Source: Planctomycetota bacterium
GTDB lineage: Bacteria > Planctomycetota > J058 > JARGOJ01
Direction of reading: 5' to 3'
DNA: 20,175 nt
Assembly (NCBI GenBank): GCA_029210225.1
Contig: JARGOJ010000031.1
Span: forward strand, 1,841 to 22,015
The notes under the pieces are model-generated. The model was given only the letters and a program-made list of their open reading frames with translations, was not told the DNA's origin and did not search any database. Numbering within the stretch: the stretch's first letter is position 1; each line of letters starts with the position of its first letter. A program made the translations under genes and the position numbers. Shown piece by piece: positions 4,073 through 6,889 of the stretch.

Positions 4073-6889
4073 CTACTTGGATTTCTTGTGTTTCTCTCGA
4101 AGGTCGGAGAGGGTTTTAGTCACCTTGGTTCCGCCGAGGATTTCGGTGAGTATGGTCCCAACATCCTTGCCTTGGAAGAGGCTGACGAGATTCATGTTCT
4201 TCGCGGCTTCCCCTAACATGATCTTGTCACCGAGCCCCGTCATGGCTTCCACGAGGCCGGCTTGAACGGCTTCCCGCTCGGCGACTGTGGCGTCTGCGGA
4301 GGCTTTCGTGAGGGCCATCTCGATTTGAGAGAGCGCGCTTTGATACTCAATCTCTTCAAGGTGTTTCAAGCGATTGGCTTCGACTCGTGCGGCGGTCTCT
4401 TTTTCCAGTCGCTCGACCGTTGCTCCTAAGGAGAGCTGATCCTGTTCGTTTTGGGATTTCGTCGCGTCCAGGGTTCTCTTCGCTGTCAGCGTGACCTTTT
4501 CGTGCTCAAGCTCTTCTTGACGGCGAAGGGTACCCAGGCGAAGGTCTTGTTCGAGTTGGGCTACGAGGCCTTGGAACTCGGCGTTCCGTTTTTCGGCGCC
4601 TAGTTTGAGCTCGTGGTGTTTGACATCGAGGTCTGAGCGCTTGTTTGCCGATTCGTATTTTTCGTTGGCTTGGCGATCACCAATTTGGAGGGCGACGGAC
4701 TCGTTTTGCATTTGGCGCATGAGGTCGCCGATGTTTGGGTCTTGAATTTGAGAGGACAAGACTTCAACTTCTGTGACGACAAAGCCGTATTCCTCAAAGG
4801 CTCTGCCGGGGCGGGCGTTATCGCCGTCTTTTTTGCCAAGGATAGTGTCTCGAATAAGCGTGGGAAGTTTCGGCCAGAGATCGATGAGGCTGCGAGTGCG
4901 GCAAATATTGCGGACTAGGGATCGCAGGTGCTCGCACATCACTTGCACGTAGTTTTCGGTGCCAAACCAGAGGTTCTTCTTCTCTCGTTGAAAGGTGACT
5001 CCGTAGGATACTCGGACTTTCACTTCAACAAAGTCAGCGGTCTCCACGGTGATGGAATCGGAGACTCGGTTGCCGACGACTCGCAGAAAGCAGGTCTCCA
5101 GTGCGTTGTCTTCGTTCTTTGGAACCCCGGTAGAGAGTTGAAGGGGAACGAGTCGCTCTTCGTATTCGAGAAGTGTGACGCAAGGTCCCTCGATGACTCT
5201 TTGAGAATTGGCGGAGGTTGCAAGGCAAGCGGTGTTAGGAGGAACGATGATGCTGAGGGCCCACCAGGTATTTATGGGCTCGCGGGCCAGCTTGTGTTTT
5301 TCCCCGAAGGCGATCCAGTTGTTCCAGTCTTCGGGGGGAACTCGACGGGCGATGTGAACTTCTTTTCGTGGATCCACGAGGTAGGAGCATTTCCCTCGGA
5401 CGAGTTTGACCTCTCCGGTAGCGAGGTCGCTGCAATAGATTCCACTTTTTTGGTCGATCCCAATGGCTTCAATGAAGACCTTGCTGTGATCGTTACCAAA
5501 GATCGGCTGGCCGTTTGATGGGCTCAGAATCTCAATTTCATTGAAGGGGAAGAAGAAGGTGTTGACTCCGGTGATGAGAAGTTCGTCTCCGGGTTCGTAC
5601 TGATCTTCTTCAAGCTTAATGTTCCTGGGGAGGTGTTTCGCGAGTTGAGATTTGGGCATGGGAGCGATGAAGCGAACCCATAGGGCGCGTTGGGGGAGAA
5701 GCTCATAGGCTTCGTAGACTCGGTTGTCTGATCCTAGATATTGGAATTGATCGTAGGGACCGGGGAAGACACGAGCGGGGCCTACTTTGATCTGGCGTTT
5801 GCCGTCAGCGTTGATGATGACGCAATACTCTTTTTCACCAAGAACAACGGCGTCGCGGACAAGTCGGGCTTTTCGGGCTTCCTTCTCGACGGCTTGGCGA
5901 AGAGCTGGGATTTGGGCGATGTTCCCAAGGATCATGCTTGAGGATGGCCCGGCATCGGCGAGGAGGTTGGAGCTTGCGGCTTGGGGAACGGGGGGAGGCG
6001 GCATGCGTCTTTGCTGTTGAGGAGGCGGGGGCATGGCCGCGTTTGGCTTTTTCTTCCGATTGCGGCTTCTGGGAGCGCGTTTTTGGACCTCTCGGTAGTA
6101 TTCGTCGTCGTCTTCGTCTTCGTCGAGGGCTTCTTCAGCGGCGTACATATTACTGGACGCGAAGTCTGGGATGGGTTCTGGCGTGGGAGCGATCGTCTCA
6201 ACTTGAGCGAGCATCGCTGCGGCTGCGCGGGCATCCAGACGTGTTCCATCGCTGTCGATGGATGTGTCAGGGACGATGTCCAGGCCGGTTGGCGGGATAT
6301 AGAATTGGGTGTCGAGGCCGCGGATGACGATGAGTTGGCCACGCGTTAACTCAATGCCGGAGTCGACATCGCTGAGTTGTTCGGCATCGGTGTCGTCGGT
6401 GGTCTCGCGAATGGCTGCGGATTTTGCGGTGATGTTGTAGTAGGGAGCTTCATTGTCGACTTCGCCGTAGACCTTGACGACAAGATACTGGCTAGAGCCG
6501 AGTTCGTGGGCGTCTCTGACTTCGCAGCGTTGGCCCGGGCGGAGCCAAAAAGAGCATGGACCCGGGATCATTTTTCGGGTTCCATTTTTGAGGGGTCTTG
6601 ATTCGTTGCGCCCGGGTTTGAAACGTCCGTTGGGACCTTGGTCAGGTTCTAGGAGGGGGTTTTCTAGGACTGCATATTGGTTGTCATCGACTTCAACCAT
6701 ACGTTGGGGGCGACCACTAACGTCCTCCCGGAATCGCCCTTTGTTGTCGTCAATGACAATGCGATCGGCGGCTGTTGGGGACACCATGGTTGGACCCACA
6801 TGGAGAACGACCTCTCCTTTATCGTCGTCCTGGACCCATAAAAATTCACGTTCGGTGACTGGGATTTTCCGGCTGCCACGTTCACCCAT
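4073..6889 (-). CDS. Major vault protein (MVP)-like protein, 938 aa: N-terminal MVP repeat domains, SPFH-like shoulder, long C-terminal coiled-coil cap-helix region
   Basis: Recalled similarity to eukaryotic MVP along the whole length. N-terminus (IPVTEREFLWVQD..GEVVLHVGP / RMVEVDDNQYAVLENP) matches the MVP repeat pattern (IRIPPYHYIHVLD..VSRVEVGP / RMVTVPPRHYCTVANP). GPCSFWLRPGQ matches GEKSFFLQPGE. ITVETADFVEVKVRVSYGVTF matches [21 protein letters not shown]. The C-terminal ~180 aa is heptad-rich (E/Q/R/L/A) like the MVP cap helix. SD AAAGGGGA lies 7 nt before the ATG at 6889. Confidence 0.8.
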   Translation of the reverse strand: MGERGSRKIPVTEREFLWVQDDDKGEVVLHVGPTMVSPTAADRIVIDDNKGRFREDVSGRPQRMVEVDDNQYAVLENPLLEPDQGPNGRFKPGRNESRPLKNGTRKMIPGPCSFWLRPGQRCEVRDAHELGSSQYLVVKVYGEVDNEAPYYNITAKSAAIRETTDDTDAEQLSDVDSGIELTRGQLIVIRGLDTQFYIPPTGLDIVPDTSIDSDGTRLDARAAAAMLAQVETIAPTPEPIPDFASSNMYAAEEALDEDEDDDEYYREVQKRAPRSRNRKKKPNAAMPPPPQQQRRMPPPPVPQAASSNLLADAGPSSSMILGNIAQIPALRQAVEKEARKARLVRDAVVLGEKEYCVIINADGKRQIKVGPARVFPGPYDQFQYLGSDNRVYEAYELLPQRALWVRFIAPMPKSQLAKHLPRNIKLEEDQYEPGDELLITGVNTFFFPFNEIEILSPSNGQPIFGNDHSKVFIEAIGIDQKSGIYCSDLATGEVKLVRGKCSYLVDPRKEVHIARRVPPEDWNNWIAFGEKHKLAREPINTWWALSIIVPPNTACLATSANSQRVIEGPCVTLLEYEERLVPLQLSTGVPKNEDNALETCFLRVVGNRVSDSITVETADFVEVKVRVSYGVTFQREKKNLWFGTENYVQVMCEHLRSLVRNICRTRSLIDLWPKLPTLIRDTILGKKDGDNARPGRAFEEYGFVVTEVEVLSSQIQDPNIGDLMRQMQNESVALQIGDRQANEKYESANKRSDLDVKHHELKLGAEKRNAEFQGLVAQLEQDLRLGTLRRQEELEHEKVTLTAKRTLDATKSQNEQDQLSLGATVERLEKETAARVEANRLKHLEEIEYQSALSQIEMALTKASADATVAEREAVQAGLVEAMTGLGDKIMLGEAAKNMNLVSLFQGKDVGTILTEILGGTKVTKTLSDLREKHKKSK

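Follow-up and report, generated by a model that had tools for sequence, protein, structure and literature searches.

What is a strongly charged, proline-rich segment doing in the middle of a major vault protein (MVP) homologue? The question is raised by a gene of a Planctomycetota bacterium (GenBank assembly GCA_029210225.1, contig JARGOJ010000031.1), located in a stretch of 20,175 nucleotides (positions 1,841 to 22,015 of the forward strand) that is called here the window. A preliminary description of the window had read the segment at 5930-6187 as a disordered insertion interrupting the MVP repeats. We found that the segment is very probably the disordered core of a helix-loop-helix excursion of about 130 residues, inserted between repeats 3 and 4 of the protein. 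The explanation that we consider best overall, and hold with moderate confidence, is that of a clade-specific disordered excursion acting as a luminal tether with an arginine-rich motif.

The host protein is of an already known kind, and the insert is a new feature of that kind. Prokaryotic MVP homologues were noted earlier in Saprospira, Microscilla, Plesiocystis and Corallococcus (PMC3762200; bioRxiv 10.1101/872010), and bacterial homologues figure in sequence surveys (the same two sources and bioRxiv 10.1101/2023.11.10.566534). By sequence and predicted structure, the protein encoded in the window is an MVP homologue; its 938 residues are identical to P0001 ('MAG: hypothetical protein P1V97_03175, Planctomycetota bacterium', where MAG stands for metagenome-assembled genome). 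Pfam detects MVP_shoulder (PF11978) at residues 607-717 with an E value of 3.2e-20, and Vault_3 with an E value of 3.5e-7 (30.7 bits, cutoff 28.8). The rat and human MVP chains of the PDB were matched by phmmer at 1e-16, residues 348-873 of the query corresponding to rat 274-794, and the family profile matched PDB MVP with E values down to 1e-33. A first AlphaFold2 (AF2) model, built from 120 close homologues (effective number of sequences ~2.2), had a mean predicted local distance difference test (pLDDT) score of 62 and an unusable N-terminal half, and was replaced by a second one built from a diverse 117-sequence alignment, with a mean pLDDT of 80.9 and ~90-97 in the repeats and shoulder. 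With this second model, Foldseek retrieved vault MVP chains at an E value of 6.5e-36 across the full length (~1000 alignment columns) and the murine R1-R7 crystal structures at 5e-15 (TMt 0.57); the shoulder also resembles the SPFH proteins flotillin, HflK/C and stomatin. The insert divides the repeats of the query, about seven in number, into three on its N-terminal side and four on its C-terminal side, a layout different from the nine repeats (R1-R9) of eukaryotes.

In order to establish whether the segment is an insertion, the junction was compared across the family. An exhaustive profile (HMMER) search of 50%-identity representatives gave 949 clusters with an E value of at most 1e-3, of which 477 reached 1e-30 or lower, and hidden Markov models (HMMs) of the two flanking repeats, run on the clusters, located both anchors in 130. 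The flanking repeats abut without any insert in 97 of these 130 clusters, whose proteins typically have 820-900 residues, while in the remaining 33 there are 60-436 residues between the two repeats. The insert-free junction reads YIPPTGIEVVxD-(2-10 aa)-VRDAVxLGxxE[FY]C and that of the query YIPPTGLDIVPDTSID-[~126 aa]-LVRDAVVLGEKEYCVI; the N-side anchor YIPPTGLDIVPD is kept in insert-bearing and insert-free homologues alike. Judged by these alignments, most prokaryotic MVP homologues lack the segment, which is a genuine insertion relative to them and does not align to an ordinary repeat. The earlier statement that it has no counterpart in canonical MVP also held, as the solved eukaryotic MVPs are disordered, with untraceable loops, only at 429-449 and 608-619 (PMC13347060).

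The insertion point can be placed on the eukaryotic protein from its C-terminal side. The C-side anchor falls robustly on human MVP 266-284, the start of R6. The repeat on the N-side is ambiguous because the repeats resemble one another: it is R3 in the query-family hhalign comparison and R5 in the better-sampled insert-free family alignment, so that the three N-terminal repeats may correspond to R1-R3 or to R1, R3/4 and R5. The human sequence used here is identical to PDB 11dr_A. What the alignments support robustly is an insert at the inter-repeat junction that directly precedes the equivalent of R6. The segment thus interrupts the repeat array, as first described, and sits between repeats rather than inside one. 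The notion that the insert replaces R4-R5 was considered on account of the R3 anchor of the query-family comparison, and was dropped given the R5 anchor of the better-sampled alignment.

The insert itself measures about 126-133 residues (~210-342) and consists of two predicted helices flanking a hypervariable loop with an acidic, a basic and a proline-rich block (Table 1). The originally proposed extent (residues 235-320, the quoted peptide being 238-318) corresponds to the disordered core, and the whole insertion is larger by the two helices. The lowest 25-residue Shannon entropy of the entire protein (2.56 bits) lies at residues 276-300, the maximum 87-residue window on the TOP-IDP scale begins at residue 231, and neighbouring 25-residue windows in the segment carry net charges of -7 and +7. 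When the whole protein was shuffled 20,000 times, two or more PPPP runs came up only once. Relative to the charge-hydropathy boundary the segment falls with disordered sequences (H 0.364 against 0.426; the scales used were TOP-IDP, Kyte-Doolittle and Eisenberg), and residues 235-314 form by far the longest stretch with pLDDT below 50 in the second AF2 model, with no secondary structure. TOP-IDP, charge-hydropathy and pLDDT agree in this way with the disorder initially proposed. No Pfam family matches the insert of the query. At the DNA level, a (TCG)8/(TTCGTC)4 microsatellite at 6101-6125 of the window encodes the acidic DEDEDDDE run, and close relatives differ at the microsatellite and at the PPPP runs by in-frame indels, a pattern consistent with replication slippage.

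A region of such composition could also be artefactual, produced by a frameshift or misassembly, by a gene that overlaps it on the opposite strand or by misplaced gaps in an ordinary MVP repeat. Open reading frames (ORFs) in other frames do overlap it (5938-6327 and 5981-6349 on the plus strand, 5932-6342 on the minus strand) and its G+C content is slightly higher (0.60). However, the reading frame is unbroken, three independent assemblies of 91-100% identity preserve it, all their indels being in-frame, more than 100 homologues have the flanking helices and the motif described below, and the segment has neither predicted beta-strands nor an alignment to a repeat. We consider an artefact of any of these kinds practically negligible.

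The orthologues showed that the insert is not specific to this protein. The best 120 homologues, with 55-96% identity and 910-1156 residues, are strongly conserved except at query residues ~225-325, and the loop between the helices is present in all 120, with 54-127 residues. Proline and alanine average 16% and 22% of the loop in the family, versus 4.8% and 9.9% elsewhere in the protein. Among species-representative genomes, a scan recovered 73 loci, mainly in Myxococcota/Polyangia, with several Planctomycetota MAGs and one Thermoanaerobaculia MAG; cultured hosts among them are Polyangium fumosum DSM 14668, P. jinanense and Minicystis rosea DSM 24000. In the 67 of these loci where both anchors were located, the insert is always present; it is clade-wide.

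Within the hypervariable loop some features are kept. In 93% of the members the basic block comes after the acidic one, and charge blockiness exceeds that of shuffled sequences (z = 4.35 in the query; family median 1.9). The one sequence motif conserved there, [VI][DE]Q[SA]ARxRx[RQ][KV], is found in 105 of the 120 members and its core RxRx[RK] in 106, compared with 4.6+-2.1 in shuffled loops, an excess of about 23-fold. Within the family, conservation is 90% or more at the columns of R274 and R276; in the query the motif has diverged to V268-QKRAPRSRNRKKK. The flanking helices have the family consensus G..xSAAAARxLLAQ (helix A) and L.S.A.RRALEREARQARL (helix B). When the query was compared with its three closest relatives, the rate of nonsynonymous substitution (dN) in the loop was 4-7 times that measured over the remainder of the gene, and the indel columns inside the loop were 2 of 2, 5 of 5 and 29 of 30 in the comparisons with P0002, P0003 and P0004, respectively. 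Nevertheless, the ratio of dN to the synonymous rate (dS) in the loop is below 1, a ratio that is qualitative only, dS being saturated (>1), and the three closest sequences share the block EYYREVQKRAPRSRNR unchanged. These comparisons indicate that the loop is under relaxed but real constraint. In all these respects the segment resembles a disordered linker: it combines low complexity, low hydrophobicity and no predicted structure with rapid substitution and indel turnover under a maintained composition, and with a conserved island, a short linear motif, exceeding the compositional expectation.

These data bear on the strongest rival explanation, a functionless spacer, according to which the junction is permissive, the loop was inflated by slippage and drift, and the charge order and arginine motif are remnants of an ancestral helical module. 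We regard this as possible though rather unlikely. It would account for a loop of 54-127 residues within the clade and of up to 436 in relatives, for the microsatellite behind the acidic run, for the concentration in the loop of essentially all indels of the gene and of its substitutions, for the loss of most of the insert at one locus, for the insert-free clusters nested in the clade, and for the unrelated content that the same site accepts, be it extra repeats, a helical module or a PspA-like coil. Against it stand the retention of the insert in 120/120 homologues and 67/67 genomes of at least three phyla, the ~23-fold excess of RxRx[RK] with its defined logo, the order of the charged blocks, the dN/dS ratio and the invariant block.

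The binding partners suggested in the preliminary description fared differently. It is very unlikely that the PPPP runs serve to dock SH3/WW-type or other protein modules. The query has one class-I-like motif (R294-x-x-P-x-x-P), and PPP and PPPP occur in 83 and 54 of the 120 loops; however, [RK]xxPxxP occurs in 33 of 120 against 25+-4 in shuffled loops, the class II form PxxPx[RK] is depleted (12 of 120 against 25+-4), PPxY is found in 3 of 120 against 3.6, and no conserved neighbouring gene encodes an SH3 or WW domain. With motif frequencies at chance level or lower across the family, the proline content looks compositional and not motif-specific. The nucleic-acid-binding alternative is better served, as the conserved arginine-rich RxRx[RK] fits it better than SH3/WW binding; such binding is putative.

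Table 1. Features of the MVP homologue and its insert; positions are those of the window and residues those of the protein.
Feature	Residues	Window position	Strand	Peptide	Basis or remark
MVP homologue gene	938 aa	4073..6889	-		ORF, Pfam, PDB and Foldseek matches; = P0001
N-terminal beta-repeat domains 1-3	8-209	6263..6868	-		AF2 pLDDT ~90, Foldseek
N-side anchor and last strand of repeat 3	197-208	6266..6301	-	YIPPTGLDIVPD	Junction alignment
Whole clade-specific insertion (helix A, disordered loop, helix B)	210-342	5864..6262	-		Junction alignment, AF2
Predicted helix A	215-233	6191..6247	-	GTRLDARAAAAMLAQVETI	AF2 helix 220-233, pLDDT ~50-60
Disordered hypervariable loop	234-314	5948..6190	-		Composition, AF2, family alignment
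Acidic block	252-263	6101..6136	-	EEALDEDEDDDE	10/12 D/E
Basic block	266-281	6047..6094	-	REVQKRAPRSRNRKKK	9/16 K/R
Core of RxRx[RK] motif	274-279	6053..6070	-	RSRNRK	Family logo
Pro/Gln-rich block with two PPPP runs	282-303	5981..6046	-	PNAAMPPPPQQQRRMPPPPVPQ	10/22 P
Predicted helix B	315-343	5861..5947	-	PSSSMILGNIAQIPALRQAVEKEARKARL	AF2 helices 315-326 and 328-343, pLDDT 50-71
C-side anchor and first strand of next repeat	344-358	5816..5860	-	VRDAVVLGEKEYCVI	Aligned to human MVP 266-284
Repeat domains 4-7	344-605	5075..5860	-		Equivalents of eukaryotic R6-R9
Shoulder (SPFH-like) domain	607-717	4739..5071	-		Pfam, Foldseek
Cap-helix	718-873	4271..4738	-		AF2 helix; matches rat MVP 647-794

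Analysis of the same junction in other lineages provides a view of where the insert came from. Some relatives carry there a helical module of ~110-160 residues that is not of low complexity, others have one to three extra MVP repeats (P0129, P0132, P0139, P0342 / P0181, P0177 are helical-module or extra-repeat relatives), and others have very long charged inserts, one with a Pfam match to PspA/IM30. The alignments show that the inter-repeat junction before the R6 equivalent is an evolutionary hot spot. The helical-module inserts share with the disordered type the insertion point, a common start (PDTS[IV]DxSG...helix A) and a common end (...LVRxA), and both lie in the same clade of 30 clusters in a neighbour-joining (NJ) tree of insert-stripped sequences, a tree without support values. 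They differ in a hydrophobic fraction of the middle part of 0.27-0.34 versus 0.18-0.21 and in having no acidic, arginine-rich and proline-rich pattern; like the insert of the query, they match no Pfam family. In this tree the disordered-loop type is a monophyletic group of six clusters, nested in the 30-cluster clade, which comprises all 24 insert-bearing clusters and six insert-free ones. This arrangement tentatively suggests one gain and several losses, with a middle part that decayed into low complexity; a structured helical module would probably have been gained once at the junction and its middle then degraded to low-complexity sequence.

The protein with the PspA/IM30 match is P0122 (1129 residues). 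Its charged insert has 336 residues (224-544), of which 280-446 match PspA/IM30 (E = 2e-11, 44 bits, cutoff 33.9 bits). The match could be a real ESCRT-III-like coil or reflect coiled-coil composition only.

Whether the insert would project into the lumen or to the exterior had been left open, and a comparison with human vaults gives a direction. The MINT domain of human PARP4 docks inside the vault on R3-R5, contacting D214, Q164 and R169 of MVP (PMC12280208). These residues are in register with P207, D346 and G351 of the query, located on either side of the insertion point. Provided that the repeats turn the same face inward, the excursion would emerge luminally because the PARP4-contact residues are in register; this analogy makes the luminal face the probable location, without proving it.

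A further rival is a role in assembly or gating, in which a flexible joint would decouple the waist-proximal repeats 1-3 from 4-7, or charge blocks of neighbouring chains would zip together, tuning cage diameter, opening or the pairing of half-cages. The segregation of opposite charges favours inter-chain pairing, the human R1-R6 region is flexible with few lateral contacts and has a polar lateral cluster at R5-6 (PMC13347060), and the two helices are conserved within the clade. However, a structural role predicts a constant loop length and the observed length varies more than 2-fold, most homologues build the same wall with no insert, and the helices are only moderate in pLDDT and hydrophobic moment. 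We therefore judge such a role quite unlikely.

The luminal tether with an arginine-rich motif, the reading that we prefer, can be put together as follows. Since the flanking strands are normally 2-10 residues apart, helices A and B must carry the chain away from the wall and return it to the place where it left. Between them, the loop is a fast-evolving, slippage-prone polyampholyte in which an acidic block, RxRx[RK] and a Pro/Ala/Gln-rich spacer follow each other in conserved order. This much, with its disorder, insertion point and confinement to one clade, is shown by the data, and what follows is inferred. The excursion would project from the luminal face of a vault-like shell, where its many symmetry-related copies would line the inner wall as a belt of flexible tethers. 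The arginine-rich motif may bind a polyanion, such as RNA, ribosomes or polyphosphate, or an acidic partner, and the acidic block upstream may mask or modulate this binding. The specific tether function is putative, and we offer it tentatively, as a doubtful part of the whole.

Several observations weigh against this reading. The KRAPRSRNRKKK of the query differs from the DQSARxRxRK form of the family, and the loop sequence is hypervariable. One Myxococcales MAG (L055, 5917-8583), among the 67 loci with both anchors, has an insert shrunk to ~57 residues, with a poly-Asp run DDDDDDGDADDDDDDEDE and a remnant of helix B; this stump lacks helix A and the arginine motif. The six insert-free clusters inside the insert-bearing NJ clade make the insert appear dispensable. 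The geometry was borrowed from the human R3|R4 and R4|R5 junctions for a different junction in a 25%-identical protein, and the very term lumen presupposes, as an assumption, that bacterial MVP homologues form cages. Finally, no conserved neighbouring gene or RNA hints at a cargo, and PADLOC and NCBIfam gave no match.

Regarding the genomic context, all-against-all clustering of the ORFs of 75 loci yielded, apart from the MVP gene and some spurious overlapping frames, no conserved neighbours. In the window, the MVP gene lies between a gene for a tandem universal-stress protein (Usp; 3068-3982, plus strand) and one for pyruvate dehydrogenase (PDH) E1 (7156-9816, plus strand), followed by genes for an FHA-domain Ser/Thr kinase (10033-11307, plus strand) and an HtrA-type protease (11513-12895, plus strand). 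The order Usp, MVP, PDH E1, FHA kinase, HtrA is kept in the close relatives L001, L076 and L077 and not in the Polyangia loci. Around the gene, no partner of the PARP4, TEP1 or vault RNA type could be recognised. The distant locus of P0016 (L002, GCA_016277765.1) has a TEP1-like DUF4062-AAA_16-WD40 gene at 17568-18814, 6.7 kb downstream of its MVP homologue, and this gene is neither in the window nor conserved across loci. DUF4062 is tied to TEP1 and the 'RNA vault' in a recent preprint (bioRxiv 10.64898/2026.05.01.722283). In the literature on bacterial MVP homologues, as searched, there is no mention of the insert, the junction hot spot or the motif, and no report of a bacterial vault particle was found.

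Other features of the protein and its family deserve a record. A second, shorter variable acidic patch, RETTDDTDAEQLSDVDSGIE, is located inside repeat 3 (residues 161-180, window 6350-6409, minus strand; column conservation 0.47), adjoining two short AF2 helices (151-158 and 166-172) that are absent from eukaryotic repeats. The cap-helix, otherwise modelled confidently, drops below pLDDT 50 at residues 753-762 (window 4604-4642, minus strand, residues ~750-762), which in the model may represent a kink or hinge. One MAG (Myxococcota bacterium BF4_93) has two MVP paralogues, L025 and L056, with inserts of 150 and 252 residues by the anchor definition; two MVP copies are also known in Plesiocystis pacifica (Daly et al.). 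The copies of Planctomycetota, Polyangia and Thermoanaerobaculia share 54-59% identity over ~930 residues, which suggests horizontal transfer of the gene between phyla. The source names of the insert-free P0307, P0327, P0270 and P0303 are Nanoarchaeia, Patescibacteria, Bacteroidota/Elusimicrobia and Cyanobacteria MAGs, where binning errors or phage carriage are possible. Taken at face value, these names make the MVP family far broader than the gliding-bacteria set of the literature.

The function of vaults has resisted explanation for decades, and bacterial MVP homologues are known only through sequence surveys. If the insert is luminal and binds cargo, it would be a natural, genetically encoded cargo-attachment site and a permissive insertion site for vault engineers, available in culturable organisms; if it is a merely tolerated spacer, it would still mark a site where large insertions spare the folding of the shell protein. 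Ribosomes have been observed inside eukaryotic vaults (PMC13100048). A more speculative and unlikely extension is that the Polyangia and Planctomycetota proteins form vault-like cages in which several dozen arginine-motif tethers per half-cage capture RNA, ribosomes or polyphosphate. If true, cargo loading would be built into the shell protein in cis, as PARP4/MINT provides in trans or as viral arginine-rich arms do, and the cultured hosts would offer a tractable prokaryotic system for what vaults enclose.

The comparison with known systems places the insert more precisely. Eukaryotic MVP (rat, human and rabbit; PDB 4V60/4HL8, 9BW5 and 9Z4W) has, in the same order, a beta-repeat array, an SPFH-like shoulder and a long cap-helix; it differs in having nine repeats against about seven, an identity of ~25% and an R5|R6 junction with no insert or disordered loop, and cage formation by the query is putative. 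The insert-free prokaryotic homologues (~820-900 residues; for instance P0130, P0143, P0168 and P0270) share with the query seven repeats, shoulder, cap-helix and the anchors YIPPTG.E.V and VRDAV.LG, whereas their junction has 2-10 residues instead of ~130 and lacks helices A and B, the disordered loop and RxRxRK. Viral capsids offer another parallel in their arginine-rich interior arms, such as the C-terminal domain of the hepatitis B core protein, which are disordered and present in many symmetry-related copies. In both cases a disordered arginine-rich peptide belongs to the shell protein, the interior location being conjectural in the query. There is no homology, and in the query the peptide is an internal loop that follows an acidic block, not a terminal arm, with putative nucleic-acid binding. 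A further parallel is the docking of PARP4 MINT (PMC12280208), which resembles the proposed arrangement in its height on the barrel wall, in the kind of junction residues involved and in an electrostatic (acidic/basic) attachment to the inner wall. It takes place at the junctions R3|R4 and R4|R5, in contrast to the one before R6 in the query, and its basic element is on a separate protein, acting in trans, whereas the query has both the acidic and the basic elements in cis.

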